Counted from the stretch's first letter, positions 3,715-31,440 are shown. The stretch: 64,000 nucleotides of DNA from Candidatus Omnitrophota bacterium (GCA_043803685.1 JAZDJU010000031.1:1-64000), one strand, 5' to 3'. Translations and numbers: made by a program. Notes: generated from the sequence alone by a model not told the origin.

Positions 3715-5805
3715 TTAATGTTTCCGTAAATAGATCCCGGAAATAACAATAGAAAGAATGAACCGGACAAAGAGGATCAATTCCTCGATCGTCGTAAGAA
3801 AAACACGCGCATAGTTGATCCTGAGCACATCGCCCCGTCGCCAGGAGATCTTCACGCTTTCCCAAAATTTCTGGAGGGGCTCGCGAGTCGCGGTGAGGCG
3901 AAGCGAAAAAAGATTCAACTTGTTCATCTTGATCTGGAACCGCGAAGGAACCCGGAACCGGTAAATATTCTTCTTCTCAAGCGCCGTAGCGGCTTTCTGA
4001 TAAAGAAGAAAAAGCTCCGAGGTCCGGAGATTTCGCCATTCCTTCGCGCACTGGGTCAGCCGCGCGATCTCCGAGATCACTTTCTGTTCAAGCGGTCCCC
4101 TTTTACGCGTGGCAAGCCAGACCTCTTCAAGTTCCAGAGTAAGCTCCCATCGGCCTTTCATACTGCGCAAAGTATCCCAAAATCTCCGTTTGAAATAGAC
4201 CCAGCGTCCCTCGACCGGATAACCTGTTCGGCGCTCGAGCCGGTCCTTCAATCGGAAAAAACCGCTGATCATCGGATGCCCGCCTTCAACATCAATCGAG
4301 TTCTTGTACCACATAAAATTTGAAAAAATACCCCAGTAATTATCCCCCTTGAGCTCCCGGTGCAGGATCTTCTTCATGTTTTCCGTGCTGTAAAAGGTCT
4401 TCCAGGCGGCCTCGTAGGCGGCAAGCCACTCTCCCGGTTTCATCCGCGGATGACGGTGTGTTTCATGGAACGTGTCGTAATTATTGAGGTCCGCGTCCAG
4501 AAGCATCCCCTTCTCAAGAGCCTGTTTATAATCCATGGCGCCCGGAAGCGGCGTCATCATGAAAAAAGATGCCTGCCCCGCGCCAAAGGACATCAATTTC
4601 TCGATATCCTGCTTCACCGATTCCACCGTATCGAGAGGAAATCCGATGATGTAGGCCAGGTGACAAACGATGCCCACCTCATGGAAAGAATCCACGAGCT
4701 TTTTGAAATTCTCGATGTCGTTCTGGTTTTTTTTCGCGGCCTTGAGATTCTCCTGGTTCAAGCTCTCCATCCCAATGAAAACCTGCCGGCAACCCGCGCG
4801 GGCGGCCTTCTCAACAAAATTCGGCACCGTATGGGCCTGGGTATCCAACTGCATCATGAAATGGAACGGGATCCCCTCTTTTTCCTTCAACTCGATCAAC
4901 CGGTCGAGGATCGTCTCCCAGTTCTTATGACGGCAAAAATTGTCATCGGTGAAAAAATAATGGGAGATCTGGTGACGACGGTATCCCTCGCGAACCGTTT
5001 CGATCAAAAGCTCGACATCGCGGAACCGCATCTTGCGTCCCTGAACGTTGATCACGGTACAGAAACTGCACCCGAAAGGACATCCCCTGCCGCAATCGAG
5101 AGTCCCGAAATGCTGAAGCGCGTAATGTTTTTGGTGTTTGGGATTAATGCGCGGGAACGAGGCTTTGGAAATATCGGGAATATCGTTCAGAAAATTATAA
5201 ACGGGTTTGAGCTTGCCCTGGATCGCGTCCTTCAACATCAACTCCCAGTGCCCGCCCTCGGCTTCCCCCGCCGCAAGGGACACCCCCGCGTTACGAAGCG
5301 TCACAAGCTCCGGAGAAAGATCGGGCAAGGTCGCCATTACCCCGCTCACATGGAACCCTCCTAGCAGGACTTCGACCCCTGCCTGACGGAATTTCATCGC
5401 GATATCGGACGCACGCGGCATCTGGTTAGACTGTACCCCGACCAGACAGATCACCGTCTTGGTGCCGGCACAATGACTTTCTTTAATGATCTTCTGATAA
5501 GGGATCCCCTGGACCGTATCGTCAATCAGCGTAATCTCCCAGATGAGGTCTTTGCCGAGAACGCCGCGTTCCCGGACATCCTCACTCAATCCATTCAGAC
5601 AGGAAAGTGTATTGCTTGGGAGCACTCCCTTCCAGTAACGAATGACATATCCTTCGTCGTCATACTTGGAGGGTTTGATCGGAAAAAGATGGAGGCGTTT
5701 GTACTTGTGAGGCCTCCCCCCGGCACACGTCGCGCCCGACGCCTCGGAGGGAACATCCGAAGAACAACAAGACCGGAGAGATACGGGATTTTCCTGAATT
5801 TGCAT
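3715..5805 (-). CDS. B12-binding-type radical SAM protein, 696 aa
   Basis: 'GRGCPFGCSFC' motif; 'LLGGFHVS' and 'GEAE' B12-domain motifs; 'FTDDNF', 'IGMES'. Confidence 0.85.
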   Translation of the reverse strand: MQIQENPVSLRSCCSSDVPSEASGATCAGGRPHKYKRLHLFPIKPSKYDDEGYVIRYWKGVLPSNTLSCLNGLSEDVRERGVLGKDLIWEITLIDDTVQGIPYQKIIKESHCAGTKTVICLVGVQSNQMPRASDIAMKFRQAGVEVLLGGFHVSGVMATLPDLSPELVTLRNAGVSLAAGEAEGGHWELMLKDAIQGKLKPVYNFLNDIPDISKASFPRINPKHQKHYALQHFGTLDCGRGCPFGCSFCTVINVQGRKMRFRDVELLIETVREGYRRHQISHYFFTDDNFCRHKNWETILDRLIELKEKEGIPFHFMMQLDTQAHTVPNFVEKAARAGCRQVFIGMESLNQENLKAAKKNQNDIENFKKLVDSFHEVGIVCHLAYIIGFPLDTVESVKQDIEKLMSFGAGQASFFMMTPLPGAMDYKQALEKGMLLDADLNNYDTFHETHRHPRMKPGEWLAAYEAAWKTFYSTENMKKILHRELKGDNYWGIFSNFMWYKNSIDVEGGHPMISGFFRLKDRLERRTGYPVEGRWVYFKRRFWDTLRSMKGRWELTLELEEVWLATRKRGPLEQKVISEIARLTQCAKEWRNLRTSELFLLYQKAATALEKKNIYRFRVPSRFQIKMNKLNLFSLRLTATREPLQKFWESVKISWRRGDVLRINYARVFLTTIEELILFVRFILSIVISGIYLRKH

Positions 5806-5842
5806 GGGGGCGGATTATACCCCATCTTGAGAGGGACTACTA

Positions 5843-6173
5843 GTACAGCTTCAAGATTGAAATTTTTAGGTGACGCAATTTCAATCTGCTCTATGGACTG
5901 TACCGTTCACTGAAAAAATCAAACTTGAAACGGTGCTAGCACTGCGTCAATATTGATTTTACGGGTTCGTAATGCTGCCCAAGTCTTTATTTCTTTTCAC
6001 TAATGGCGACTTGGACTGCACTGACTTTAATTTAAATTAAGGGTAGTCAGCGCTGCCCCCAATCTCAACTTTGTTTCGATTAATAAGAATTGGGACTGCA
6101 CTGATTTCCGATCATTGATTAATAAAAATCAGGTGTTGCACCGTGTACCCGTAAAAATAAAGTGACACGGCAC
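5843..6173. repeat. Tandem hairpin array, copy A (8 units); candidate structured ncRNA
   Basis: Abutted inverted-repeat units 5843-5898, 5900-5936, 5939-5975, 5977-6016, 6018-6053, 6055-6096, 6098-6136 and 6138-6173, separated by T or TA; inverted homolog at 10554-10832. Confidence 0.85.
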
Positions 6174-6203
6174 TACAAGAGTTCCAGCTTGGAAGCTACT
6201 GTG

Positions 6204-6238
6204 ATTATATTGAAATGGGTTTTGTCCCTCAGTATAAT
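6204..6238. promoter_or_regulatory. Overlapping divergent sigma70-type promoter elements
   Basis: Plus strand TTGAAA (6210-6215), 17 bp, TATAAT (6233-6238) upstream of the response regulator; minus strand TATAAT at 6204-6209 pointing into hairpin array A. Confidence 0.55.
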
Positions 6239-6330
6239 GCCCCCATTCAAGTTGCGGAAAATTTTGCTTTTTGAAAGGATCATCGAAACGCTACTCTGGA
6301 ATAACTGGACCGCTAAAAATGGAGATGCTC

Positions 6331-6735
6331 ATGCCGAAGAAAGTTTTAGTCGTGGATGATGATTCGGATCTTTGCGAACAGCTCAAGACGGAAATCGCAG
6401 AGCAGCTAGGCTGTGACGTCGATATTGCCTTGAACGGGCGGGATGCTGTCGCGATGTTCTTCGTCTCGAGAGTGGAGCAACCTTACGATCTCATTCTCCT
6501 TGATATCAAAATGCCCGTCTTTGACGGCAAGAAAGCTCTCGACGTTATCCGAAAGAACGAAGAGCTTCAAGGGGTTCTTTTGGGGCATGGGGTTCCGATC
6601 ATTATGTTAACGGGAGTGACTACGGGAGTGCCTGATACCTTCTATGAAGGTTGTGACGATTACGTGACCAAACCGTTTAAAACTGATTTTTTGATCAAAA
6701 AAATAGCAGAGCACCTAAACCGCAAAAAGGTTTAG
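6331..6735 (+). CDS. Single-domain response regulator (REC)
   Basis: 'VLVVDDD', 'DLILLDIKMPVFDG', 'IIMLT', 'YVTKPF'; GGAG RBS before ATG 6331. Confidence 0.9.
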   Translation: MPKKVLVVDDDSDLCEQLKTEIAEQLGCDVDIALNGRDAVAMFFVSRVEQPYDLILLDIKMPVFDGKKALDVIRKNEELQGVLLGHGVPIIMLTGVTTGVPDTFYEGCDDYVTKPFKTDFLIKKIAEHLNRKKV

Positions 6736-6879
6736 CACCTTATTTCCGGTCGCGCAGGGCTGGGAACCTATTCCGGCGGGGCATTAAAGCATAGGGCTTA
6801 CCATGTCGTTCTATAATCGGGGCAAGCTATTCCTGAAATAGCTTTCAAAGAGAATTATCCCTGAGGAAGGAGCGTGAAA

Positions 6880-7261
6880 ATGTCACAAGAGGGTTCCGGG
6901 ATGGGCGCGGTGGAACACAAGACGCAGCCTTTCAAGAAATGTCCTTGTTGCTCGTTTGTATGGGACAATGAAAATGATTTTTTGAGTGACGCCAACATCG
7001 AGATCATGGGCGATCCTGTTTTTTTTTGAAAAAACGAAAAAGAATTTTTTTCTTTTTAATCATAAAATCTGTCAATCATCATTGACGGTTCTAACCTTTG
7101 GGTTTACCAGCCTTCGAGAGGACTTGGCAGAAGCATTATCGTGGGCTGAACGTCCCTCTTACTGTTTATATCCAGAAAGCATGGAAGGCTGTTCCCCGCG
7201 ATGCGATTGTTCCCATCTTCAGAAAATGGCCCAACGCATAAGAAATTGGCCCAAAAAATAA
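6880..7261 (+). pseudogene. Cys-rich protein frameshifted in a T9 tract
   Basis: RBS GAGGAAGGA; ATG 6880 reads 'FKKCPCCSFVW...FLSDANIEIMGDPVFF' then TGA at 7027; removing one T from 7019-7027 joins it to 'EKTKKNFFLFNHKIC...CDC...RNWPKK*'. Confidence 0.65.
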
Positions 7262-7270
7262 TTTTTCCAG

Positions 7271-8650
7271 TCAGGGCATCGGATAGCGGAGACTTGTGAC
7301 GGCAAACCGGGCCCGGCGAATACAATCCGTGATGCCGAAGCCTTGAAGTCCGTTCCCCGCGAGAAAAAGACCTGGATATCGAGAACTTTCCTTCTCGATC
7401 TCCGCCACACGCTCAAGATGTCCCACCTCATATTGAGGCAATGCCTTGAGATACCGCTTCACGTCAGTAAAGAGCGGCTTGGACCGGGCGCCGAAAAGAT
7501 CCCCCGTGAAAGTCGCCGCCTCCCGGCTGAGGATCTCATCGCTCTTATGGAAGACCTCGGGAAGCATGGCCTCCGAGATGAAAGCACGCGCCAAGGCGTA
7601 TTTTCTGTCAGCACTCTTGCCAAGCCACTTGAAACTTGAAAAAGGATATTGGCCACCATCCGCTGGCACCCAAAAGCCCGGTTCTATTCGCACCACCGGC
7701 ATATCCTCGGCACTGTAAGCGAAACTCACCGTCGAGATCGAATCGTATCGCACGGCCGAAAGTGCCCGGGAAAGTTCTGGAGCCGTTGAGGACAATAACC
7801 GGGCAGAATCAGGGGCATTCATGGCAAGCCCCAAGATATCCGCATCGAGCGCAGCGCCGTTCTCCAAAAGGATCTTCCATCCCGCATCGTAGACGCATTG
7901 GCGAACGGGCGTCGAACGCTGCAGCTGACAATGTCCCAGTTCCCGCTCAAGCGTCCTGGCCAATCCTTCAAGGCCTTGCCTCAGTGTAAAAAATTCCGCC
8001 GCAGATTTTTTTTTCTTGGCGCGAATCCTGTCCAGGAAAGACCCTGTAAGACTCCCCTGAGTTTCCTCGGCTTGCCGCCACTTCGGGAACAGAGCATTCA
8101 AGCTCGCGTGCTCGGGATCGGCCATATAAACACCCCGCACCAACGGCATCACGGCCTCCCGGTAGAAATTTTTCCCGAGGCGGCGGCCAACAAAGTCCGC
8201 GATACTCTCATCTTCCTCTCCACTCTTGCGGAGGACGAACGGCTCCGCAAGCATCCGGCACTTCGCCGCAAATCCCAGGTTTGGATTTCCGAGAAAACCC
8301 AGGACATCCCCCCACGATCCTGGAAAACCCTGCATACGATAAAACTTATTATTTTTCAGATAGAAAAAATTCCGGAAGCACGGAGCTGCCTCGATCACAT
8401 CACCCTCAAGGCCTAATGCGCGGCAAAGATCTAGCGTGTCGCTTTGGCCACCATAAAAGGCATCCGCCCCCGATTCCATCCGGAGATCGCCGTGAGACAA
8501 CGTGCGGAGGACGCCACCCCAACGGTCAGACGCTTCAAGAATAGTGATCTTGAGAGGAAATTGCTCCTGGGAGGCTTTCTGCGAGAGGAAAAAGGCGGCG
8601 CTAAGACCGGAAATGCCACCCCCGACGATCACCGCATGGCGGTCCTTCAT
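7271..8650 (-). CDS. hemG: Protoporphyrinogen/coproporphyrinogen oxidase (HemY type)
   Basis: 'IVGGGISGLSAA' FAD motif, 'LEASDRWGG', 'ESGADAF', 'ALPQYEVGH', 'GFGITDCI'. Confidence 0.88.
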   Translation of the reverse strand: MKDRHAVIVGGGISGLSAAFFLSQKASQEQFPLKITILEASDRWGGVLRTLSHGDLRMESGADAFYGGQSDTLDLCRALGLEGDVIEAAPCFRNFFYLKNNKFYRMQGFPGSWGDVLGFLGNPNLGFAAKCRMLAEPFVLRKSGEEDESIADFVGRRLGKNFYREAVMPLVRGVYMADPEHASLNALFPKWRQAEETQGSLTGSFLDRIRAKKKKSAAEFFTLRQGLEGLARTLERELGHCQLQRSTPVRQCVYDAGWKILLENGAALDADILGLAMNAPDSARLLSSTAPELSRALSAVRYDSISTVSFAYSAEDMPVVRIEPGFWVPADGGQYPFSSFKWLGKSADRKYALARAFISEAMLPEVFHKSDEILSREAATFTGDLFGARSKPLFTDVKRYLKALPQYEVGHLERVAEIEKESSRYPGLFLAGNGLQGFGITDCIRRARFAVTSLRYPMP

Positions 8651-8677
8651 AAGATCCGAACAGGAACGGATGGACTC

Positions 8678-9604
8678 TTAGTTCTTTTGGACAAGGATCG
8701 TAAAGATCTTTCGGGTCGGAGCCGTGCGGGGCTCCCACGGCCGTTCATAGACAAAATCGATTTTGCCTTCGCCCGGTGTCACAGCCTTGAACTTAAAAAT
8801 TTCCTCGCCCGGAACACCCGGCATCACTTCCTGGGAAACAACATGGTCGGACCTGACAAACTGAGCGGTCTTATCCCCCTCTGGCATCGTCATCTTCCAC
8901 CGAAACCCTGTTGAGGGATTGCTCGCAAGCGCGATCGAGAACTCTTCTCCCGGAAGGACTTCCACAGGGACACCCGGATCACGGAAGATCAACGGCTTGT
9001 TTTCGGTCACCGGAGTAGCGCTGGGGACCGGGGAAGAAGGTGTATCGCTCTCCTTGCTCGCATCGACCGAAACCTGAGCAGACGTTTCAGGCAAGATCTC
9101 AGCGACAGGAGGAATCGGAGTTTCCTTGGCTTCTTCGGGCACCACAACATTCATGGTGATCGGATCGCTCCAAAGGGGCTCAGCGACATCTCCATCTTCG
9201 CTCATACGTTTGAACCCGAGCCTGAAGGTCACCGGTCCCGTCTTGTCCTGACTGGGGATATAAAGAATGATGTTCTTCTCATAACTGTTTCCAGGGTCCA
9301 ACGTCACTTCTTCGAGGGTATTCTCGTTACAGGTCCAGGACTGAATCGACACAACGGGATTATCCGTGACCCAGTGTTTCTCATAAGAACAGGTATTGCT
9401 CCAGAAATCGACCGAAGTATCGTCGCTCGTATTGGAGACCTCCACCCGGTTGAGGAACATCATCCCGGTCTTGACGGAATTTTGATCGGGAAATACCTGG
9501 ATCTGGAGGAGAGGATCCTCGGCCCGAACTACCGGGCAAAAAAAACAAACCCCTAATAGAAGGAAAAAGAAGGCGTGGCTAAGCGAGGAGGAACCGATTT
9601 TCAT
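8678..9604 (-). CDS. Exported protein with C-terminal chagasin (inhibitor I42) domain
   Basis: Signal peptide, Ig-like N-domain, Pro/Ser linker, chagasin motifs 'SNPSTGFRW', 'PGVPG', 'YERPWE'. Confidence 0.8.
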   Translation of the reverse strand: MKIGSSSLSHAFFFLLLGVCFFCPVVRAEDPLLQIQVFPDQNSVKTGMMFLNRVEVSNTSDDTSVDFWSNTCSYEKHWVTDNPVVSIQSWTCNENTLEEVTLDPGNSYEKNIILYIPSQDKTGPVTFRLGFKRMSEDGDVAEPLWSDPITMNVVVPEEAKETPIPPVAEILPETSAQVSVDASKESDTPSSPVPSATPVTENKPLIFRDPGVPVEVLPGEEFSIALASNPSTGFRWKMTMPEGDKTAQFVRSDHVVSQEVMPGVPGEEIFKFKAVTPGEGKIDFVYERPWEPRTAPTRKIFTILVQKN

Positions 9605-9611
9605 TTTCGAA

Positions 9612-9836
9612 TCAACTGACCTTTACGAAGGGATACTGGGCTTTGACGTGTCTTTGAAAGAAAGTCCCATGCGAAGGCGCGGACATGAGCTCCTGATAGA
9701 TCCTTTCGGGAACTCCCTGATAGCGATACACGCCGCCCGCGCGGAAGACGACCTCCAGGATTGATGTCATGTTATCGTAGCCGATCAGCGCGAGATCACG
9801 CGATCTTACGGGCTTTACATCTATTTCTGTCACCAT
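9612..9836 (-). CDS. KTSC domain protein
   Basis: 'IGYD...LEVVF..GGVYRYQGVP...YQELMSAPSHGTFF' matches the KTSC consensus; AGGAGG RBS. Confidence 0.9.
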   Translation of the reverse strand: MVTEIDVKPVRSRDLALIGYDNMTSILEVVFRAGGVYRYQGVPERIYQELMSAPSHGTFFQRHVKAQYPFVKVS

Positions 9837-9851
9837 AAAAGCACTCCTCCT

Positions 9852-10298
9852 TCAGGGATGGGTGGCCCGCTGACGCAAGGCCTCTTCGAGCTCAACGAAC
9901 TTCTCCAGGATCACGTCCCGGGCCGGCCGGAAACTCCCGTCCTGGAATTTAAAAAGAATGACGCTGTTGCTGAAGATCGACCGGTAACAGTGTTTCCGGG
10001 CCCAAGCCTCCGGATTTTCGCCCCGGTAATTGGTCATCAAGAACACAAGCCCGAAGGGATAGGCGACTTCTGCCGTATAATCGATCCCCTCAAAGCGAAC
10101 CACGACCGGCGCCGTCCGGAAATAGTTCAGGAGACAGACCATCTTCGCCAGATCATTCCCCGGCTTTTTCAGGAATTCCTGATAGGCCTTGGACTGCGCC
10201 ACTGGCTCAAGCCCTTCGGCGCCCCAAACCGGCGGGACCCCTCCTCCCAGAACACCGGCAAAAACACTCAATAGAACAACCGCTAAAAATCTCTTCAT
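9852..10298 (-). CDS. Exported DUF5329-like protein
   Basis: Signal peptide MKRFLAVVLL; spacing of 'LLNYF...FEGIDY...RSIFS...FQDG' resembles DUF5329. Confidence 0.55.
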   Translation of the reverse strand: MKRFLAVVLLSVFAGVLGGGVPPVWGAEGLEPVAQSKAYQEFLKKPGNDLAKMVCLLNYFRTAPVVVRFEGIDYTAEVAYPFGLVFLMTNYRGENPEAWARKHCYRSIFSNSVILFKFQDGSFRPARDVILEKFVELEEALRQRATHP

Positions 10299-10335
10299 TC
10301 CCTTTATGATTCCTTGACCTTCCGCCCGACCGGGA

Positions 10336-10536
10336 TCATGCCTCGTCCATATAGGACGTATGCCCCACGCTTTTTTTATAAAAATCCAGACACTCACGAC
10401 AAATTCCCTCGCCGTGTCCCCATTTGGGGTGCTCCTTCAAAATCACGTCAATGATGTGATGGTCCGTGTGCTTCAAAAAAACCATCAGATCGTGCTCGAT
10501 CTTTTCCTGGCAGACCGGACACACATAATTTTCCAT
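10336..10536 (-). CDS. Small putative zinc-binding protein
   Basis: 66 aa with 'CPVC...H..HH...HPKW...CREC'. Confidence 0.7.
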   Translation of the reverse strand: MENYVCPVCQEKIEHDLMVFLKHTDHHIIDVILKEHPKWGHGEGICRECLDFYKKSVGHTSYMDEA

Positions 10537-10553
10537 AAAGGCTCATCTCCGGC

Positions 10554-10832
10554 GTCATTTAGACCTTACAAAGAAGCGGTAGTCTAAATGAACTAGTACC
10601 GCATGACAATTAAAATTAAAGGTATGCGGTACAGTACTTGATTTTCATTTACAAGAATTACCGGAAATCAGTGCAGTCCCAATTCTTATCAATCGAAACA
10701 AAGTTGAGATTGGGGCAGCACTGACTACCCTTAATCTAAAATAAAGTCAGTGCAGTCCAAGTCACCCCTCATGAAAAGAAATAAAGACTTGGGCAGTACT
10801 GTTAACCCCTAAAATTAAATCGACAACAGTCC
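10554..10832. repeat. Tandem hairpin array, copy B (7 units); candidate structured ncRNA
   Basis: Units 10554-10593, 10596-10632, 10634-10674, 10676-10716, 10718-10753, 10755-10794 and 10796-10832, joined by A or TA; reverse complement aligns with 5939-6173. Confidence 0.85.
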
Positions 10833-11212
10833 TAAGCCGTTTCGTCAAAGCCCCAATTGGCGTGCAGGAAATACTTTTTGATCTCGGTCTTATGTTCTTT
10901 CATCCGGAACTGGAAATTGGCGATCCCCCCCTGAGGCAAATGGTCCGGCTCGGTCGGGACACTGGTCCCCAGAAGGGGGACCTGGTTCTTGTCGAAAATC
11001 ACGAGTTGCGCGCGGATATCCTTGATCGGATGTCCGATATTGTTGATGACGATGCCCTGGAGGGATGCGCCTTCTATTTCGTTGTAATGAGTGCTGGCGC
11101 CTTTGATGATCACTTCGCGCGGCAACTTCTGAAAATTCTCGATCTCTGGAAAGGATTCGATCCCCCTGGCCCCTCGGTATGATGTTTTCTGTCGCTTATA
11201 GAAACGGCCAAT
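10832..11212 (-). CDS. FxLYD-domain-like protein (start uncertain)
   Basis: 'GIVINNIGHPIKDIRAQLVIFDKNQVPL...LPQGGIANF' FxLYD-type Ig fold; no canonical start after the upstream gene's stop (ATT possible). Confidence 0.55.
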   Translation of the reverse strand: MGRFYKRQKTSYRGARGIESFPEIENFQKLPREVIIKGASTHYNEIEGASLQGIVINNIGHPIKDIRAQLVIFDKNQVPLLGTSVPTEPDHLPQGGIANFQFRMKEHKTEIKKYFLHANWGFDETA

Positions 11213-11225
11213 GGGGCTACAACCT

Positions 11226-12698
11226 TCACAGTATTTTTTGGATCTCCGCTTCGGCCTTGGGATCCGCTTCCGGGGCCAGACTTTCGAGGAACTGTTCGAA
11301 TTCATCCTCCAGGGCGAGATAGGGCACGGGCTTGAGCCCGGTAATTCGCTCGATCGTATCGAGGGTCTTCAGGTCGAACGGGTCGCACATCGCGATCCTC
11401 ACAGAACCTTCGGAAACCCCGATCGGGACCGCGCGATGATGAAAGATGAATTCCGCGTTAAAAAGATGGAAGATCGCAGGGTCCGGAGTCCACCCTTTCA
11501 GGCAAAAGTAAGGGATCTTGAGCTTCTTCTCAAGCATCTTTCCTACGTCCTGACTGGAGATAAGATTCATATCGATCAAAGTCTGACCCAGACGACGCCC
11601 CGTCTGGAGGTGCTCTTTAAGGGCTTCGGCAAGCTGGTCTTCGGTGATCAGCCCCGTACTGACCAGGACCTGCCCGAGCGGATCCACGCGTTTCCTGGGC
11701 TTGGCGGGTTTCAACTCCGGCTCCAGGATATGGACCGCTTCATCGAGCTTCTTGATCGGTGACGAGCGACGGTCCTGAAGATAATGACTCCCCGGCTGGC
11801 TTTTGAGATAAGTTTTGACCTCGGCGGCGTCCTGCGCGATCTCACGGAAATTCGCGTAATTCCGGTAAAAATTGGTACAACCGGCCACAGAACAGGACAT
11901 AAGCGGAAAATTCTCCATTTTCCCGCGCCGGTTCTCCACGCGGATAAAACCCGCCTCCCGGTCCGTCTTGTTGTAATAGGTGGGAATGATCCGGTCAAAA
12001 TCATCGATAAATTGACGCGCATAGACCTCTTCAAACTCCGCCGGAAGCACCACGATAAAATCGTCCCCTCCAATATGCCCGACGAAGCACTCCCCGTCCC
12101 GTGCCACGGCGTGACTCGTCCCCACAAGGATCCGGGCGGTCTGGAGAATGGCCTCATCGCCTTTCTCGAAGCTGTAGTGATCGTTGAAAGCCTTGAAGTT
12201 GTTGATATCGATGTAAAGGACCGAGAATTTCTCGCCCGCCTGGATTTTCTTCAGAACGATCTTCTCGATCGCGTGACTGCCTGGAAGATGCGTGAGCGCG
12301 TTGGCCTCCACCCGCTCCGTTGTTTTTGCGATGTTCAGGTTCACGCGCAACTGGAGCACGAGTGGGCTGAACGGCTTCACCAGAAAATCGTCGAAGCCCT
12401 TTTCGTGGCCGAGCATGAGCTCCGTCAATTTGTGCTCTTCGGTGATCATGATGACCGGGACCGACATCAGGTGAGACCGGGAACGGATGATCTGGATGAG
12501 GGATTTTCCGGACACGGGTTCCATGTCACTGGAAAGGAGGATCAGATCGAGAACCTCGCGGTCAAGAAACCTCAGGACCTGACTGCTCTTCGAGGCTTCA
12601 AAAACCTTATGGTGGCGGGAGTGAAGACGCATCAGGATCAATTCACGGGTCACAGGGTCCTTTTCGGCGACCAGGATCCGCTTTCCCTTGTCTCTCAT
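11226..12698 (-). CDS. Pseudo-receiver / GGDEF / MshEN fusion protein
   Basis: REC lacking the phospho-Asp ('LILLSSDM'); 'YIDINNFKAFND' and 'HIGGDDF'; tandem MshEN motifs 'PLGQVLVSTGLITEDQLAEAL..H' and 'RLGQTLIDMNLI'. Confidence 0.85.
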   Translation of the reverse strand: MRDKGKRILVAEKDPVTRELILMRLHSRHHKVFEASKSSQVLRFLDREVLDLILLSSDMEPVSGKSLIQIIRSRSHLMSVPVIMITEEHKLTELMLGHEKGFDDFLVKPFSPLVLQLRVNLNIAKTTERVEANALTHLPGSHAIEKIVLKKIQAGEKFSVLYIDINNFKAFNDHYSFEKGDEAILQTARILVGTSHAVARDGECFVGHIGGDDFIVVLPAEFEEVYARQFIDDFDRIIPTYYNKTDREAGFIRVENRRGKMENFPLMSCSVAGCTNFYRNYANFREIAQDAAEVKTYLKSQPGSHYLQDRRSSPIKKLDEAVHILEPELKPAKPRKRVDPLGQVLVSTGLITEDQLAEALKEHLQTGRRLGQTLIDMNLISSQDVGKMLEKKLKIPYFCLKGWTPDPAIFHLFNAEFIFHHRAVPIGVSEGSVRIAMCDPFDLKTLDTIERITGLKPVPYLALEDEFEQFLESLAPEADPKAEAEIQKIL

Positions 12699-15622: not shown

Positions 15623-15659
15623 CACTCCCAATTCCAGACCGGGTCTGGAATTGGGAGTG
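15623..15659. repeat. Near-perfect palindrome followed by a T-run; REP-like element or terminator at the end of the cobalamin operon
   Basis: cactcccaattccagacc-g-ggtctggaattgggagtg; core resembles the palindromes at 24610 and 36076. Confidence 0.65.
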
Positions 15660-24167: not shown

Positions 24168-24285
24168 GACCTGTCTTGACCTCTGCTCGGAGGCATTAGA
24201 ATGATGAGCCACGATCCACGCCCCACGTTCCACGAATTCTGCTTCAGTTTTCGTGGCCCGTGCAACATGGCCCTTGGCCCGGTTT

Positions 24286-24453
24286 TAATGACAGGTTTGA
24301 TATTCTGACTAGGTAAGTATTAGCCTACTCGCGAGCCTTCCCTTCCCTTTCGGAAAAGTGGCTATTCGCTTTCGTCCTTACCGACAGCGGCGGCACCGTG
24401 GAGTCGTTTCGCCGAACTTCGGCGTCACGCTCACTTCCCAATGCCTGTCATTA
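24286..24453 (-). promoter_or_regulatory. Cobalamin riboswitch
   Basis: Minus strand: P1 taatgacagg/cctgtcatta, GGGAA, 'gccgccgctgt', 'gccact...gggaagg', B12-box-like 'agtcagaa'; upstream of btuB and cobQ. Confidence 0.88.
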
Positions 24454-24609
24454 CGTTCCCTCAAAACAAAAATTATTTCGAGGGAACTTTTTCAAAGAAA
24501 CCCTTCGCTTTAGCTCTGGGTAAGTGGGCCGGAAATTACCCGCCCCCTTAAAGAACAACCAACAACACGCGGATTATACTCACGAACCCCCACACCACAA
24601 CAAAAAAAA

Positions 24610-24720
24610 GGGGCTCCCCACTCCAAGACCCGGTTCTAGAACCCGGTCTTGGAAGGGGTTCGCTGATCTGTCATTGCGAAGGAGTCCGCCGAGATTTGTG
24701 GCGGACGACTGCGGCAATCT
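24610..24720. repeat. Two adjacent REP-like palindromes
   Basis: ggggctccccactccaagacccggttctagaacccggtcttggaagggg (near copy at 36076-36124), then gtcattgcga...gcaatct. Confidence 0.7.
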
Positions 24721-24806: not shown

Positions 24807-26138
24807 CTAATTATCTCTCACTCTCATGGCGAAGCCGCGTTCCACCAACTTCTGATTTACATAGACGCTATTAATGAAAACATCCGCCAGGTAACGGTCA
24901 TACTTGTCCGACTTGGAGGTTTTGACCAAAACCTCCGTTCCACGTTCCACGACCCACGCTCCACGTGCCTGCCCTTCACCCTTGTCCCCATTTTTTCCCG
25001 TGGACCGTGGCCCTTGTCCCGTGTCCCTGTTTTTCGTGTCCCTTGGCTCGTGGCTCGTGTCCCCATTTATCATTTGTTCTAAAAATACTTTCGCCTCCTT
25101 CCCTTCCTTGCTCACCATCTCCGGCGCGTCAATGCCGCGCAGGCGCAGCGTCTGCACGCTCCGCACACCGAACCCCAGGTCCACCACCGCCTTCACCGTG
25201 TCGCCGTCCAGCACTTCGATAATGGACGCGCGGTACGTGTAAAGGTCGTCCGCCGTGCGCTTCGAGAGTTTGATCTTGTCTGAAGGCGACGAACCTTCCG
25301 GCATCGCGAACAAAGCTTCAATGATCGCCCCTTCCTTGAAACCCAGAGGTCGCGACGTCCGGTAATAGTTCGAGAACCCGAGATCGATCACCATTTTCCC
25401 CACCTCAGGACCCACAGTCGCCTTGACCATCCTATAAGTCCCGACTTTCCCCAGCTTCGCCGTGAGCTTCTCCTCCACGACCACGGGCGCCGTGACTTCA
25501 CCCTTCGCCTCCTTGCGCCGTTTCACCTCTTCACGGATTTGATCGCGATTCCAATTTTCTTTGGCAGCTTTCTCTGTAAGCTCGTCACGGTCCTTAGAGT
25601 CATTCACGGCAAGAAGCTCCCGGTAATCTGACCAAGTCAACTTCCCCGCATGCGGGGAAATGGGGTACGCCCTGGCGAATTGGAGCATATACCCCAATTC
25701 CGTGTCACTCACGCCCAGGTCATTCGCAAGCCTGAGAAGCACCTGCTTCCCATAATCCGCTCTTTCCTTGTGCTGAAGCACATGCTCGTCAATGAGCTTG
25801 CCGATCTCCCAGTTCTCGCGCACCTTCTCTTGCGCTACCGCCTGCTCCACCCGTGCCTGACTCTCCCCCCTCGCCTTCCGAATCGCCGCCACCAGTTGGT
25901 CGTAAGTCGTTACGGTCGCAGTAGACGATTGTCCTACGGTCACAGTAGACGCCTGTTCGCCAACTACTTCCGGCACGTCCTTCTGAAGAACTTGAGGAGT
26001 GTCCTGTGGAACCACCTGCGGAGAATCCGTTTGTACTACCTCCGGAGCGTCAAGTGGGAGCGTCTGCTCCTCCGCCCTCAACGCGCCCGACGCCCCAAAA
26101 ACCAGAAGAAATAAGATAACCGTCAGTTTCGTTTTCAT
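24807..26138 (-). CDS. Signal peptide + DUF1016(YhcG)-N + thermonuclease (SNase) fusion
   Basis: 'WEIGKLI...RADYG...LANDL...FARAYP...LTWSDYRELL' and 'VLDGDT...LRLRGIDAPE...DKYDRYLADV...VNQKLVERGFA'. Confidence 0.85.
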   Translation of the reverse strand: MKTKLTVILFLLVFGASGALRAEEQTLPLDAPEVVQTDSPQVVPQDTPQVLQKDVPEVVGEQASTVTVGQSSTATVTTYDQLVAAIRKARGESQARVEQAVAQEKVRENWEIGKLIDEHVLQHKERADYGKQVLLRLANDLGVSDTELGYMLQFARAYPISPHAGKLTWSDYRELLAVNDSKDRDELTEKAAKENWNRDQIREEVKRRKEAKGEVTAPVVVEEKLTAKLGKVGTYRMVKATVGPEVGKMVIDLGFSNYYRTSRPLGFKEGAIIEALFAMPEGSSPSDKIKLSKRTADDLYTYRASIIEVLDGDTVKAVVDLGFGVRSVQTLRLRGIDAPEMVSKEGKEAKVFLEQMINGDTSHEPRDTKNRDTGQGPRSTGKNGDKGEGQARGAWVVERGTEVLVKTSKSDKYDRYLADVFINSVYVNQKLVERGFAMRVRDN

Positions 26139-26218
26139 TTTAACCTCTAATTAAGTGATGTGCCTGCCCTGCGTAGCTTTAGCGGAGGAAGGCCCCCCGA
26201 CTGGACAGGGTCGCCAGT

Positions 26219-27085
26219 CTACACTGTAGTCTTTTCAAGATAGGCGTTCTTTCGTTGTAATAAGTCTGACAGTCTTTTTTTCTCTTGAGTTACGGCGTCG
26301 ATATGTTCAGCGCTTAATATCGAAGTGGACACCCACGCATGCGGCTCTCTTTTAACATCCCATAAAAAATGCACATCCATCGCCCTCGGACGGTTAATAC
26401 CCCTTCCAGAATATTTCCATGAAATTATCAACAAAACAGTTTCATCATTAAGTCCAGCGCTTGATGAATAAGCAATCTGCGTTTTTTCATCAACGTCAAT
26501 ATCCTTTTTACGCTCCACGCCTTGTTTGAGGCTTTTAATTATTTGTTTTTTCGCGTCTTTGTACCCAGGGATATCTATGTTGTTTTCGATTTTTATAATC
26601 TCCCAAACCAAAACGAGGTCTTCCCCAGGAAGATTGCCCACATTAACCAGATTGATATTACCGTTTCTAACATCCCCCTCCACACCCAAAACCAGCCTTG
26701 CTCGGTTCATCATAGCAAATTCCAAGGATTGTTCTCTCTGCGTGTTCGCTTGAATACAAACTCCTATCGAAGCGATCAAGATCGATGCCGCAGTAATAAT
26801 ATTTACGGGCTTTATCTTGTAAACTCTCCCGCCAAGAATCATAAGAAGGGGAATCAGCCCCACCCACAAGTAACTTTTTCCGCCCCAACATAGCACCATT
26901 GAGAAAATTCCGACTGGAATAAAAAACCAAAGAATGAATTCTGAGAATTTTTGAGGCATGAAGTTGCCGAACATTTCACGCACATCTTCTTTGAACGTAA
27001 TTTCTCTGGGCTGTTCACTCTGGCAATGGCTGCACTTAGTTGCTTCTTCGCATATTTCTTCACAGCAGCACTTACATTTTTTCAT
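26219..27085 (-). CDS. Hypothetical membrane protein with N-terminal zinc ribbon
   Basis: 'KKCKCCCEEI..EATKCSHC', 3 TM segments, low GC; GGAGG RBS. Confidence 0.7.
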   Translation of the reverse strand: MKKCKCCCEEICEEATKCSHCQSEQPREITFKEDVREMFGNFMPQKFSEFILWFFIPVGIFSMVLCWGGKSYLWVGLIPLLMILGGRVYKIKPVNIITAASILIASIGVCIQANTQREQSLEFAMMNRARLVLGVEGDVRNGNINLVNVGNLPGEDLVLVWEIIKIENNIDIPGYKDAKKQIIKSLKQGVERKKDIDVDEKTQIAYSSSAGLNDETVLLIISWKYSGRGINRPRAMDVHFLWDVKREPHAWVSTSILSAEHIDAVTQEKKRLSDLLQRKNAYLEKTTV

Positions 27086-27117
27086 AAATTCCCTCCAGGC
27101 CTCAAGGCGTCGAACGA

Positions 27118-27163
27118 TACCGGGCACCTTGGGGACGACTACTTTTGACTCACCTTACGCATC
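27118..27163. repeat. About 46-bp intergenic motif, copy 1
   Basis: taccgggcaccttggggacgactacttttgactcaccttacgcatc; homolog at 28824-28869. Confidence 0.75.
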
Positions 27164-27230
27164 TGTCCGCAGAAGCTGTGTGGCGGGGACGGCGTCCGGC
27201 ATACGATGCACGGATTTTCTAAATATCATT

Positions 27231-27794
27231 TTATCCCAGTAATTTATCCCACCCTGCATTCGATATCGCACCTTTAAATATCACATTCTCCGGCTTAACC
27301 TCTATTTTTTTATTTTCAAGAAGTAAATGCCAAACACCTTCATAATGCAAAATAGGGCCAGACCCTCCCAAAATATGCATGCCGAACAAATGAGGAACTT
27401 CCAACTTAATAGGCGTGGGAATTCCTGGCCGCAAAGAATACTTTCCGGTAACCTTACTATTACCATCAAAAAAACCTATCGACTGGAGCGATACGGAACC
27501 ATTACCAGTCAAGCTAAAGCCACCCACATATTCCGCCCCTGTAACAATATATATTTTGTTAATATCTTTATTAACCACTTCCAGTAAAAGCCCTATTTGA
27601 TATTTGTCAGTCTCTTTTTCAACATAATAAATATCAACTTTTTTACAAAATAAGTTCGAAACTCTTAAATTCCAAACAAACCAAATCACATAGAGCGCCA
27701 GACACAAAATAAACACCCCAAAAACAATCCATGAAAACAATTTGAATGTACCAGAACCTTCTACGGCTGCCTTTAAAACATTCCATTGATCCAT
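27231..27794 (-). CDS. Hypothetical single-TM protein
   Basis: 187-aa ORF in very AT-rich DNA with one N-terminal TM segment. Confidence 0.65.
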   Translation of the reverse strand: MDQWNVLKAAVEGSGTFKLFSWIVFGVFILCLALYVIWFVWNLRVSNLFCKKVDIYYVEKETDKYQIGLLLEVVNKDINKIYIVTGAEYVGGFSLTGNGSVSLQSIGFFDGNSKVTGKYSLRPGIPTPIKLEVPHLFGMHILGGSGPILHYEGVWHLLLENKKIEVKPENVIFKGAISNAGWDKLLG

Positions 27795-27943
27795 ATTATT
27801 TTCTCGCTTTTTTAAAATTATCGTCTAACGGCGTTGCGTGTTCTTAAGCACTGCTCCGCTGCCGTGGGAGCTGCTACTTTCGGCTCGTCTTGCGTCTCCC
27901 CTGCGAAGCAGTAGAGTTTCAAACTCTGCCGAGCGTGCCAAAA

Positions 27944-28768
27944 CTATTGGAGTTTCGGCCCGCGGTCGGCAATCGGTTTACGCTTCCTGTTCTTCATCGA
28001 CACCATTGCTAGACCGCCTACCCCAAAGAGAAGCATCGACGCAGGTTCGGGTGTGACCGTGGCATGTTGTTTGATGATGCTCGCATCGAGTGCCACATTA
28101 TAAAGTGCAGCATCATCAAGACTGCCTGCGAAATAGCGGTATCGGGTACCGGCGTACAAAGAACTTCCCATTTCCAGCGGCTGATCATTCGTATTCTGTT
28201 CCAATCGATTCGGCTGTGAAGCCTTGAGATTTCCATCAATGTAAAGCTTCAGGTCGCTCATATCATAAGTTCCAGCCACATGATGCCACTTTCCATCAAA
28301 AACGTTATTTGCTCGAACCTCACTCCACCCATCGAGTCTGCCAAAAGCAAATTGTAGAGTTTGATCATCTTTCATGTATTGCAAACACCAACCATTGTGT
28401 CCATAAAATCCATGGGATTTATCAAAAATTAGCGAGACGTTGCCCACTTGATCCCCGGCATTCGCTTTTAACCATAGTTCAACCGTCATTGCCCCGCTCA
28501 AAGAGTGAATGGCGCCAGAAGTCGTTGGGAAATTGACCCATTGATTGACCCCATTAAAGCTAAGCGCATGGCCAGAGACTCCGGTGACCCAGTTACTGTC
28601 AGTCATGTTTTGCAGGATGCCTGTATTTCCGTTGCCGGACACATCTGAAAGCGTGGTTCCGCTTCCTTGATCGAAATCCCATTTCCCAAGCACCTCGGCA
28701 TATGCTTGCGTCCTGAATAATAGAACACAAGCGATGACGGCTAGCGATCCCACAATGCGTTTTCTCAT
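27944..28768 (-). CDS. LamG/concanavalin-like PEP-CTERM protein
   Basis: Signal peptide; 'WDFDQGSG..DVSGNG', 'DGKWHHVAGTYD...LYIDG', 'GSLDDAALYN'; C-terminal 'TPEPASMLLFGVGGL...RKRK'. Confidence 0.9.
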   Translation of the reverse strand: MRKRIVGSLAVIACVLLFRTQAYAEVLGKWDFDQGSGTTLSDVSGNGNTGILQNMTDSNWVTGVSGHALSFNGVNQWVNFPTTSGAIHSLSGAMTVELWLKANAGDQVGNVSLIFDKSHGFYGHNGWCLQYMKDDQTLQFAFGRLDGWSEVRANNVFDGKWHHVAGTYDMSDLKLYIDGNLKASQPNRLEQNTNDQPLEMGSSLYAGTRYRYFAGSLDDAALYNVALDASIIKQHATVTPEPASMLLFGVGGLAMVSMKNRKRKPIADRGPKLQ

Positions 28769-28823
28769 GAACGACCTCCTGCTTGACAATTATTTTTGTT
28801 TTTCAAGATAGCTAGTTGAATGG

Positions 28824-28869
28824 TACCGGGGACCGCGGGGACGGCTACTTTTGGCTCACCTCACGTATC
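28824..28869. repeat. About 46-bp intergenic motif, copy 2
   Basis: taccggggaccgcggggacggctacttttggctcacctcacgtatc. Confidence 0.75.
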
Positions 28870-28895
28870 ACTTGAGGTGTCTGGTATTATTTTGT

Positions 28896-29495
28896 TTACC
28901 AATATTGAATGAATGGTGCGCCAAACCCAACTCCCGCGCAAGCCCCCAAAAGCAAAAGAACGATTTGAGCTATAATCAACCAGTAGTTATAAGACTCTCT
29001 AACAACTACATATTTAAAGTTCTTTTGATCTAAAGGCTTCCCTAGTCCCTTTTCTTTGGTGTATTGCAATTCCTCTTGGGCGATTGCGGAAAGCAATTTT
29101 TCAGGATCCTCCTTCGTTTCGATTAATTCCTTCAAAATAAATGCGCCCTTTTCGGTTTCAGTCTCTCCTACAACATGCAACCTATGTGACCAAAGAAGCA
29201 TGTGCGCCACACCAGCCAAAAGAGATACAGCCCAAGAGGCAAGAGCAACGAGGGAGATGGTCAAATGAGAATCAGCAACTTCGCGGAAATAGCTGACACC
29301 TGAGATATACAAAAAAAACGCTCCCGCCGTACCGTTCAAAATTAATTTGCACACATCAAATTCAAATCGATTACTTTCCGCAAACGCTTCAACGGCGGCT
29401 TTATTCCGAGCATCGACGGCCTTCAATATTCGTTCTATTGTTTGACGCAACGCTTCTTTACTTTCAATCAACTGAGCTGCCGTAAAATTTTCCAC
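28896..29495 (-). CDS. Hypothetical 3-TM protein
   Basis: 199-aa ORF, GGAG RBS, hydrophobic segments. Confidence 0.65.
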   Translation of the reverse strand: MENFTAAQLIESKEALRQTIERILKAVDARNKAAVEAFAESNRFEFDVCKLILNGTAGAFFLYISGVSYFREVADSHLTISLVALASWAVSLLAGVAHMLLWSHRLHVVGETETEKGAFILKELIETKEDPEKLLSAIAQEELQYTKEKGLGKPLDQKNFKYVVVRESYNYWLIIAQIVLLLLGACAGVGFGAPFIQYW

Positions 29496-29555
29496 TTTCG
29501 TTAATCTCCGTGAAAACCGGACGGCGTCCGAGAGGGAGGGGTTAGCGTCCTAAAT

Positions 29556-29670
29556 GAAAAAAGCGGGCGCGGGCCCGCTAGTGTCACTCTCTGGATTTTG
29601 TGTTGCGCCAAAACGCCGACTGGTCCTGCATTCGCCATGCCCCAACCCTCATTTTCTTCTTCCGTCATTT
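29556..29670 (-). repeat. About 115-bp repeated leader (22-codon sORF + terminator), copy 1
   Basis: Near-identical to 31441-31555; ends on the minus strand in gcgggc-ccgc-gcccgc-tttttt. Confidence 0.85.
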
Positions 29671-29831
29671 TGATCTACAACTCCCCCTTCGACCGCTAAA
29701 TACTCTACCCCTCTGGGATCAGTTTCAAGAAAAAACTCAACCCGCTAACCCGCCACCCCACCAGAGCCCTGATATAACACCTGATGATGATCCACATCCG
29801 CGTCCGAATCACCCCCCCACCCCCGTCCGCT

Positions 29832-29855
29832 GGCCATATATCATATATGATATAC
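29832..29855. promoter_or_regulatory. Palindromic operator-like site (atatcatatatgatat)
   Basis: Inverted near-copy at 30121-30144 on the other side of the XRE gene. Confidence 0.55.
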
Positions 29856-29877
29856 AGTCTCTCCCCCACGCGAAACC

Positions 29878-30096
29878 TCAAAGGATCTTCAAGCCCAACT
29901 TCAGAGTGTCATTGAGTCGAACGAGAAGGTCGAGCGAGAGGTTCTGGAGCCCTCTCTCGATCCTGGAAATATTAGCCTGGCGGGTCTTGAGCGTGCTGGC
30001 CAATGCCTGTTGCGTCAGGCCCTGCGCCTGTCTCGCTTCCGCCACCGCTTTCCCGATCTTCCTCTGGATCTCCGTCACCGAAGTTCTTCCCATCAC
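29878..30096 (-). CDS. XRE-family helix-turn-helix protein
   Basis: 'IGKAVAEARQAQGLTQQALA..LKTRQANISRIERG..NLSL'. Confidence 0.88.
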   Translation of the reverse strand: MMGRTSVTEIQRKIGKAVAEARQAQGLTQQALASTLKTRQANISRIERGLQNLSLDLLVRLNDTLKLGLKIL

Positions 30097-30120
30097 TCGC
30101 TCCCCGCTGCCCCTCTTGCC

Positions 30121-30144
30121 GCATATCCTATATGATATATGGCC
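30121..30144. promoter_or_regulatory. Palindromic operator-like site upstream of the XRE gene
   Basis: gcatatcctatatgatatatggcc is an imperfect reverse complement of 29832-29855. Confidence 0.55.
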
Positions 30145-30185
30145 TTACTGCCCGCTTGACATCCAATCTGTGCATTTTTAAGTTT

Positions 30186-31418
30186 TTAGATCTTTTCATA
30201 GGTGATCCCCAGGATGAACTTTATCCATTCTTTGTCGAGTTCGTTCATTTGAGCCTGGGAAAGGTGCTGTGTAAAACAATCATGTGACGTATTCATATCA
30301 TTGGAAGCGTTTTCGCGTTCATATTTCAAATACTGCTCGAAAAAGTCCTTAAAAACGGGATGCCCTCTCTCGATGAAAAAATAAGTCAAACTCCACGACA
30401 TCAAAGCAAACATTTGTTCGTCTGATCTCGTCATTCCATAGCCCGGCCAGTGGGAGAACACCGCCATGGCATGCTCCAACTCCCCTTGTCCATAAAGAAA
30501 GTTTATGAATTCAAGCTTGGACAGGATTTCGCTTTTCGCATCTTTCTTTTCCAGCTTATAGCTGATGTACTGAGCGAGCCCTTCACTGGCAAACCGTGAT
30601 GGCGAGCTGGCGTAAAAATTACCCAGCAAGCAATGCGCCATTCCATAAGCCATAGCATACCAATCCCAGGAGCCATCAAAATAGATCACTATTTCGTTCT
30701 CGTGGTTATCGATAAACCCTTTAGAGCCATGACCGCCGAGTGGCCGCCCCCCACCCACGTCTTCGAACTTCTTTTTCCATTCATCCATCAACGTCAGGTA
30801 TTCTGAATACCGTCCCACGATCAAGACCTTCACATAGGAAGCCGGTTTCTTTTCAGGACCCAGAATATCCGTCATCAGCTTCTTCTCCTTACGAAGAAGA
30901 TCCCCCAAATGTTCGATCAAGGGTCGATGGTAGATCTCGGGAATATTGGTTTTGATGACAAACTCCTGATTCCCGAATACCTGTGCACCCGTCCAGGACG
31001 GCGCAGCTTTCATGGCTTGGGCGAATTCCTTCTTTTCCTCGAGGGTGTTGAGCCGAGCTTCGATCTGTTCCTTTTGGTTTGAAAGATTTTTCTCCAATGC
31101 CTGCTTTAAAATCTGCTCGGCCCCCGGGAAATCCCCCTTCAACTCCAGAATTTGGTCATAAAAGTCATAAACGATCCATTCCTCAGGATGAGATTTCAAA
31201 AGCTGTTCGAACAGGGGTATCGATTTATTGAATTGGCCTCTCACACCGTAAAGGTAAGCCTTGTCCAGAGTATCGTGGAAGGTTGATGACGGGCTGACGC
31301 TCTTTAGCCCTTGTTCCGTGGCATTTGCAGCAGAAAGTTCGAAAGGCATCGAAAAAGCGGTAGTCAATACCAACCCGAAAACAATGATTAAACGGAACGC
31401 CCGTTCGACTTTGCTCAT
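30186..31418 (-). CDS. Exported TPR protein with degenerate peptidase-MA-like domain
   Basis: Signal peptide, TPR helices, 'AYGMAHCL...SEGLAQY' (HExxH position altered). Confidence 0.6.
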   Translation of the reverse strand: MSKVERAFRLIIVFGLVLTTAFSMPFELSAANATEQGLKSVSPSSTFHDTLDKAYLYGVRGQFNKSIPLFEQLLKSHPEEWIVYDFYDQILELKGDFPGAEQILKQALEKNLSNQKEQIEARLNTLEEKKEFAQAMKAAPSWTGAQVFGNQEFVIKTNIPEIYHRPLIEHLGDLLRKEKKLMTDILGPEKKPASYVKVLIVGRYSEYLTLMDEWKKKFEDVGGGRPLGGHGSKGFIDNHENEIVIYFDGSWDWYAMAYGMAHCLLGNFYASSPSRFASEGLAQYISYKLEKKDAKSEILSKLEFINFLYGQGELEHAMAVFSHWPGYGMTRSDEQMFALMSWSLTYFFIERGHPVFKDFFEQYLKYERENASNDMNTSHDCFTQHLSQAQMNELDKEWIKFILGITYEKI

Positions 31419-31440
31419 GGCTGACGTCCTGCCTATAAAA

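Follow-up and report, generated by a model that had tools for sequence, protein, structure and literature searches.

The window analysed here is a stretch of 64,000 nucleotides (64 kb) from a Candidatus Omnitrophota bacterium (GCA_043803685.1 JAZDJU010000031.1:1-64000), and it carries two arrays of abutted hairpin modules, A and B, which are the subject of this work. Array A (6173..5843, minus strand) contains eight modules read on the minus strand and lies between two divergent genes. One of them encodes a radical SAM protein of the B12-binding type (3715..5805, minus strand), and the array is located 38 nt before the start of this gene, sharing the sense of the strand on which the base linking the modules reads A (hereafter the A-linker sense). 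The other encodes a CheY-like response regulator (6331..6735, plus strand), which is divergent from array A and is preceded by a promoter-like site (6210-6238). Array B (10596..10832, plus strand) contains six abutted modules with single-A joins. On one side, a 157-amino-acid (aa) open reading frame (ORF; 10832..11305, minus strand) ends with a stop codon that overlaps the last base of the sixth module, and on the other there is a 66-aa zinc-ribbon-like ORF (10336..10536, minus strand), which follows array B when the minus strand is read. The genes between both arrays (a response regulator, a protoporphyrinogen oxidase-like protein, a chagasin-type inhibitor, a KTSC protein and small ORFs) show no common theme.

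The modules of array B are B1 (10596-10632), B2 (10634-10674), B3 (10676-10716), B4 (10718-10753), B5 (10755-10794) and B6 (10796-10832). Those of array A, on the minus strand, are A1 (6173-6138), A2 (6136-6098), A3 (6096-6055), A4 (6053-6018), A5 (6016-5977), A6 (5975-5939), A7 (5936-5900) and A8 (5898-5843), the last one being a 56-nt composite that holds an inner 11-bp stem. Direct reading and the alignment of the copies revealed that array A repeats the six units of array B in identical order and then adds two extra ones. The stems comprise 8-11 bp and the loops 15-25 nt, with an AT fraction of 0.66-0.83, and the linker is a single A at 5/5 junctions of array B and at 6/7 of array A, where the remaining junction is a dinucleotide. 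The identity between A and B for units 1 to 6 is 0.62, 0.73, 0.95, 0.92, 0.88 and 0.57, respectively, so the middle units are near-identical and units 1 and 6 have diverged; this profile, high in the middle of the array and low at its ends, fits partial gene conversion between dispersed copies. Compensatory double changes between the two arrays affect two pairs in unit 1 (gtaccgCAt/aTGcggtac versus gtgccgTGt/aCAcggtgc) and two in unit 6 (inner pairs TT/AA versus CG/CG). The original prediction, made by a model that had only the sequence, was accurate in all these respects: it had described six abutted hairpins in B and the same six plus two in A, single-A linkers, and stems covarying between the copies through the double changes just mentioned.

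The arrays share an 8-base boundary motif at their left ends, found on the plus strand at 5839..5846 in array A, where it overlaps the first four bases of the terminal module, and at 10592..10599 in array B. These are the two matches in the window, versus 0.09 expected, and both are array ends. The motif that marks the junctions occurs 18 times in the window when both strands are considered, versus 17.5 in shuffles, and 9 of the 18 are inside arrays A and B. The units are too dissimilar for Tandem Repeats Finder, which reported no tandem repeats in arrays A and B. An extra perfect 10-bp hairpin (10555..10591, strand not assigned) adjoins array B and does not carry the end motif of the family.

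Relatives of these arrays were found in other genomes. Genome contigs were scanned with a degenerate pattern of three consecutive junctions, which matched at least 118 stretches, with 116 loci among the matches listed. Three of these listed loci (L038, L091 and L097) are true hairpin arrays, and they belong to two Candidatus Omnitrophota metagenome-assembled genomes (MAGs): L038 and L091 lie on the same contig, 25 kb apart, in one MAG, and L097 comes from a second one. Nearly all the listed matches are due to chance or to simple repeats in GC-rich genomes. In a closing-stem test between junctions, only the window and L097 reached at least 8 pairs in both segments, versus 7 and 4 in the best control; L038 and L091 rank lower only because one of the two tested segments has a C-A at position 2 in that sense, and both are clear arrays on direct reading. 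Moreover, the 20-kb flank of L038 contains two further arrays (1284-1367 and 7572-7768) that were not matched by the junction pattern. Hence, the listed matches together with the L038 flank provide at least five arrays besides A and B, all from two Omnitrophota MAGs, and the family amounts to at least seven arrays: two in the window, three in 20 kb of L038 (L038a, L038b and L038c), one at L091 and one at L097.

The comparison of the window with 21.5 kb of DNA from these relatives showed that module types recur between genomes in different orders. The best partners of the window modules in the related arrays present identities of 0.72-0.86. The unit-5, unit-3 and unit-2 types fit better when flipped (0.76-0.85, versus 0.57-0.71 in the same orientation), whereas modules corresponding to units 4 and 1 retain their orientation within these arrays. 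A flipped fit with unflipped neighbours indicates an inversion of the loops between arms that did not affect the linkers. In L038, the loop of a unit-6-type module (7572-7642) encloses another palindrome, rich in GC, suggesting that one palindromic element was inserted into another, and the single L038 match of the 8-base boundary motif (7567-7574) is likewise an array end. A 6-7-nt motif is also repeated over a short stretch (L038 9880-9925) between array L038c and the start of a DUF1016 gene. A TA target-site duplication was considered and dropped, as TA flanks arrays A and B of the window and L038b but not L038a, L038c or L091.

In total, 31 modules could be delimited by coordinates across the seven arrays. 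They measure 36-42 bp, plus two composites of 56 and 71 bp, and their ends are paired and follow the pattern G-Y-M-C ... G-K-R-C. Among the 29 modules included in a MAFFT alignment (alignment A2), G occupies position 1 in 28, C occupies position 4 in 27, and the last C is invariant. The single-base linkers are uniform per strand within every array (5/5, 6/6, 3/3, 3/3 and 2/2), so the arrays are polar. The orientation of the modules, as judged by their loops, is mixed and does not alternate, while the spacing is regular, with the modules abutting each other. Furthermore, a three-base loop-edge motif next to the stem was found in 14 of the 31 modules, versus 2.8 expected from shuffled loops, in one orientation in 10 cases and in the other in 4.

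The covariation already noticed between both copies extends to the whole family. For the eight outer pairs of alignment A2, 92.7% of the 232 cells are standard pairs, compared with 67.3% after shuffling, and the covariation score (0.750, versus 0.249 in shuffles) was reached by none of 500 shuffles. When the partners were slid by 1-3 columns, only 29-46% of the cells paired, and 6 of the 8 pairs have changed on both sides across the 29 modules. It is therefore evident from the covariation test that selection or some mechanism preserves the single-strand hairpin potential, as the original prediction had proposed.

A covariance model built from alignment A2 (R1) was searched with filters off against the window, L038, L091 and L097, and retrieved no modules other than the known ones. 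Its best match outside the arrays (window 40022-40066) scored 15.9 bits (E = 0.84). In 100 unrelated loci (1,300,869 nt) it gave no match at E ≤ 10, and in 13 more loci the best match scored 10.4 bits. A hairpin-chain scanner requiring 8 of 9 Watson-Crick pairs was discarded, since it missed real modules and was too permissive in GC-rich controls.

Concerning the genomic setting, all seven arrays are extragenic, and four of them lie between same-strand genes, starting 0, 0, 6 and 15 nt past a stop codon; in array B and L038b, the final base of the array is shared with the stop codon. This location, just after stop codons or upstream of co-directional genes, makes co-transcription likely. The genes beside the arrays were called from ORFs, and the 157-aa ORF next to array B is supported by Atlas only, its nearest clusters (0.96, 0.95 and 0.95) being hypothetical proteins of 111-124 aa that are commonest in Omnitrophota. 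The neighbourhoods of the different arrays have no protein in common. A blastp comparison of the ORFs of at least 40 aa from window 3-13 kb with the ORFs of L038, L091 and L097 gave no match at E ≤ 1e-3, and the only gene common to the window and L038 stretches encodes a DUF1016_N plus SNase protein (window 24807-26138 and L038 8523-9875, both on the minus strand), which is about 72% identical by tblastx and has a match to PDC-S02, a PADLOC candidate family. The gene starts 50 nt from an array in L038, but in the window it lies 14 kb from array B. No cas, toxin, transposase or integrase domain was detected with Pfam, NCBIfam or PADLOC in the window or in the 20 kb of L038, and these resources gave nothing relevant for the array neighbours. 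A protein family co-occurring with the arrays, which the original prediction had suggested looking for, was thus not found in the window, L038, L091 or L097. A 24-nt inverted repeat bracketing array A (5788-5811 / 6239-6262, 83% complementary) was also rejected as part of the element, as it is no better than the chance pairs listed alongside it. The start codon of the radical SAM gene lies within the left arm, and the repeat may sequester this start in a long leader or be there by chance.

Both arrays fold better than expected as RNA, with z-scores of -5.86 for array B (plus strand) and -5.22 for array A (minus strand), and no shuffled sequence folded equally well; with DNA parameters the z-score of array B is -4.54. 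Many modules have a hairpin potential close to equal on either strand. Within stem positions 1-8 of the 31 modules there are 203 Watson-Crick pairs, 19 G-U pairs in the A-linker sense, 14 C-A pairs (which correspond to G-U on the other strand) and 12 other combinations. An excess of G-U pairs in the sense of B-plus and A-minus had been claimed, and this is true in the window (13 G-U versus 5 C-A at stem positions 1-9) and does not extend to the related arrays (6 versus 8, leaving out the composite unit L038b_1). The polarity of the linkers and a less marked difference in energy nevertheless favour that sense too. Similarly, the minus-strand TATAAT reported upstream of array A is present as a hexamer at 6204-6209, but the promoter scan found no full minus-strand promoter upstream of this array and revealed a strong plus-strand promoter-like site (6210-6238) instead. 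The same scan found no plus-strand promoter-like site belonging to array B, which is antisense to both of its neighbouring genes. The consensus terminator scan flagged nothing within array B and a single weak site in array A, where A6 meets A7 (5932-5948).

Regarding known families, the arrays are not CRISPR arrays, in agreement with the first description: they contain no tandem, identical or near-identical direct repeats, no cas domains accompany them, and no Rfam CRISPR repeat family matches them. They do not correspond to any RNA family in Rfam either, as had been supposed. At gathering score, none of the arrays in the window, L038, L091 or L097 is matched, and the E-value scan, which covered 5000-12000, gave a single match touching an array at E ≤ 10, a nematode snoRNA model with 19.7 bits versus a gathering score of 80. 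Searches of the literature on Omnitrophota palindromes and on tandem intergenic hairpins retrieved no prior description.

The closest likeness is to repetitive extragenic palindromes (REPs) and bacterial interspersed mosaic elements (BIMEs). Two studies describe these as short extragenic imperfect palindromes that form composite arrays, occur in either orientation, are lineage-specific and undergo compensatory stem change (PMC2817692, PMC3733652). The present arrays share these traits, being extragenic palindromes with several unit types, mixed orientation, compensatory stems and a restricted lineage. BIMEs are further characterised by regular spacing and an alternating orientation of their palindromic units; of the modules with a loop-edge motif, 10 point one way and 4 the other. 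REPs usually exceed 100 copies per genome (PMC2817692), and the 64 kb of the window and 21.5 kb of relatives covered here contain seven arrays. The REP unit is given as a 20-40 bp palindrome in PMC3733652, which also places REPs mostly between unidirectional or convergent ORFs and downstream of coding regions, and describes, for a verrucomicrobial genome, dimers with partners separated by 1-2 bp. With 36-42 bp the modules are at or just above the upper bound of this size range, and the position of the arrays (7/7 intergenic, 4/7 between same-strand genes) agrees with that of REPs. On the other hand, the modules differ from REPs in their AT-rich loops of 15-25 nt, in the presence of at least six to eight different stems per array, and in being strictly abutted through a polar single-A linker. 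Hence, the family is not REP in the strict sense. To our knowledge, the linker polarity has no known counterpart.

Other systems resemble the arrays in part. REPINs, which are mobilised by RAYT (Y1) transposases, are hairpin-forming non-autonomous repeats that replicate within a genome, where the RAYT gene is flanked by the repeats, and the conserved bases at the foot of the hairpins could be a comparable recognition element; however, REPINs consist of the same REP paired in inverted orientation around a spacer, while here adjoining modules differ, and there is no RAYT in the window or L038. attC sites are recombination sites defined by a single-strand hairpin with conserved ends and a variable centre. 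They exceed the modules in length, have gene cassettes between them and depend on the IntI integrase, whereas the modules abut and the window has no integrase domain. In ToxI-like type III antitoxin RNAs, tandem units of about 36 nt are cut to monomers by a partner endoribonuclease. Those units are near-identical direct repeats followed by the toxin gene, unlike the different units found here, which have no toxin-like neighbour and no PADLOC match. Finally, hairpin clusters downstream of stop codons, in inter-operon regions, have been proposed as intrinsic terminators (PMC8355165). The arrays depart from these in their 15-25-nt loops, in having no U tract and in the location of array A upstream of divergent genes.

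Considering all these data, it is somewhat probable (around 0.55) that the arrays are a lineage-specific, polar and mosaic palindromic repeat of the REP/BIME type, co-transcribed with the adjacent genes and acting, if at all, as an RNA structure in untranslated regions (UTRs) or between cistrons. Shuffled and partly flipped modules at unrelated intergenic sites are the signature of a dispersed mosaic palindromic repeat. The two copies had been presented as a self-contained new non-coding RNA or cassette system, and this view did not hold, as at least five further intergenic arrays are built from these modules, reordered and sometimes flipped, which is how a dispersed repeat family behaves. Each array is a polar chain of 2-8 modules of about 36-42 bp, which have conserved paired ends and are linked, on one strand, by a single A. 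According to this proposal, the element would be mobile, spreading as whole or partial copies of arrays that are partly homogenised by recombination, with modules being shuffled and loops inverting between short arms. The stems would change fast and yet stay paired through selection on the hairpin potential, through template switching during replication, or through both. Any function would most likely be that of REP/BIME-type elements. Once transcribed, the stem-loops in UTRs or between cistrons could affect the stability of mRNA 3' or 5' ends, read-through or translation termination; by analogy with REPs, such a role in mRNA end protection, read-through or termination would be the default assumption.

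Several observations weigh against a REP/BIME-type repeat. The unpaired GTAG/CGTC tag of REPs is absent from the first and last four bases of all 31 modules, whose ends are paired instead, and classical REPs have conserved stems and variable loops, whereas here the stems vary and the loop is partly shared. The density in the window is low, as the covariance-model search with filters off found no module in the window other than those of arrays A and B, and a blast-short search of the window modules against the window and the Omnitrophota loci added no further window copies. No Y1/RAYT, transposase or integrase was identified among 62 window ORFs and 21 ORFs of L038. The covariation test is partly circular, since the modules had been delimited by their hairpins, a concern against which stands the almost complete tiling of the arrays by hairpin modules. 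Moreover, the arrays show strand asymmetries. The opposite-strand folding z-scores in the window are only -2.79 and -2.56, weaker than those of the A-linker sense; as RNA, all 7 arrays are more stable in the A-linker sense, by 1.5-15.8 kcal/mol (summed units), and in 6/7 this sense is directed toward the next gene, array B being the exception, although these counts are suggestive only and not independent, as the arrays are mutually related (A with B, L091 with L038c). These asymmetries hint at a dedicated strand-specific RNA just as well.

It could then be thought that the arrays constitute a polar hairpin-cassette element of an undescribed kind. Such an element would be made of orthogonal hairpins of about 40 nt whose stems diversify under a local-folding pressure, and its ends, linkers and loop-edge motif would be read by a factor, either an RNase releasing ~40-nt hairpin RNAs from the co-transcribed array or a structure-specific single-stranded DNA recombinase that inserts, flips and shuffles cassettes; this seems rather unlikely to us. 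A stand-alone structured RNA, the leading idea of the original prediction, in which a transcript in the A-linker sense is cut at the single-A linkers into ~40-nt hairpin RNAs with a guide-like, antitoxin-like or decoy function, would explain the polarity of the linkers within each array, the greater stability of this sense in 7/7 arrays with its stronger z-scores in the window, and the covarying stems. It is nonetheless quite unlikely, considering that array B is antisense to both neighbours and has no plus-strand promoter-like site, that no full minus-strand promoter precedes array A, and that no nuclease, toxin or cas gene is nearby. The loops of the modules flip between genomes, so a fixed loop RNA sequence cannot be the active part, and G-U and C-A combinations show no overall strand bias (19 versus 14 in the first eight positions of the 31 modules). 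In addition, a search of the loops against phage and plasmid sequences had been suggested, and a blastn search of array B in distant mode against both collections gave no match; therefore, a spacer-like targeting of mobile DNA gains no support. If the modules were instead single-stranded DNA hairpin cassettes, an HUH/Y1- or integrase-type recombinase encoded elsewhere would read the paired ends and the linker, inserting, shuffling and flipping modules. The mosaic order with flipped modules, the nested insertion in one module, the conserved module ends with their single-base linker, the 8-base boundary motif at three array ends in two genomes and the DNA-parameter z-score of -4.54 speak in favour of this. 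However, template switching and ordinary recombination also yield flips and shuffles, no enzyme of this type is encoded in the 64-kb window or in the 20 kb of L038, and, as the stems differ, a sequence-specific enzyme would have to read only the structure and four end bases, which makes this explanation unlikely.

Template switching can create perfect stems and multi-base compensatory changes (PMC8794818). The modules could be functionless quasi-palindromes, with template switching perfecting the inverted repeats and inverting the loops, and the arrays growing by local duplication without selection. The inversion of loops between short arms that this process predicts is seen, and many modules have almost the same hairpin potential on either strand. 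Against it, the module types, loops included, are kept at 0.72-0.86 identity between genomes whose stretches compared here have, one gene apart, no other detectable similarity in DNA or protein; the ends, the linker base and the polarity are conserved; and the loop-edge motif is enriched (14/31 versus 2.8 expected). An origin by mutation without selection is accordingly very improbable. The arrays could also be a multivalent binding platform, titrating or positioning a protein that recognises the loop-edge motif on hairpins or cruciforms. The presence of this motif in 14 of the 31 modules and the stems that vary and covary beneath a partly conserved loop speak for such a platform, and the tolerance to either orientation fits the recognition of cruciform or double-stranded DNA. 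Nevertheless, 17 of the 31 modules have no loop-edge motif and no candidate binding protein co-occurs with the arrays, and we consider this proposal highly improbable. In comparison with all of these, a dispersed repeat of the REP/BIME type remains the reading we prefer.

The non-coding DNA of Omnitrophota, an uncultured phylum, is essentially undescribed. With heterologous stems that covary, a loop motif in common and linkers of fixed polarity, a repeat family of this kind would broaden the spectrum of known REP-like elements, and the arrays offer a natural set of orthogonal hairpins for separating selection from template-switch mutation in the maintenance of stems. If the arrays were processed or mobilised by a dedicated enzyme, this would be a new mechanism. 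It should also be taken into account by annotators and those searching for RNA motifs that a strong covariation between two copies need not imply a dedicated RNA gene.

Other features of the window deserve mention. A cobalamin riboswitch (24277-24478, minus strand; Rfam RF00174, 43.6 bits, above the gathering score) was identified, and downstream of it, at about 15.6-24.2 kb, there are genes for a TonB-dependent receptor, TonB, CobQ, an ABC transporter and a BtuR-type adenosyltransferase. An Rfam tRNA model matches 59 nt at 40060-40118 (minus strand; 34.9 bits, gathering score 29), overlapping the best non-array match of the R1 model, and ARAGORN detects no tRNA in the window. At 6880-7261 (plus strand), a 49-aa Cys-containing ORF that ends in a T run overlaps, in a different frame, with an ORF of 91 aa. 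No family matches either of them, and they could represent two small ORFs or a single gene with a frameshift at the homopolymer. The region 26000-33000 looks like an acquired island, with a GC content of 0.43-0.49 versus approximately 0.52-0.60 around it, mostly family-less ORFs, and Laminin_G_3 and ORF6N-domain proteins. Finally, two perfect hairpins unrelated to the array family, at 15623-15659 (13-bp stem) and at 24620-24656 (a perfect palindrome past a gene end), look like ordinary terminators.

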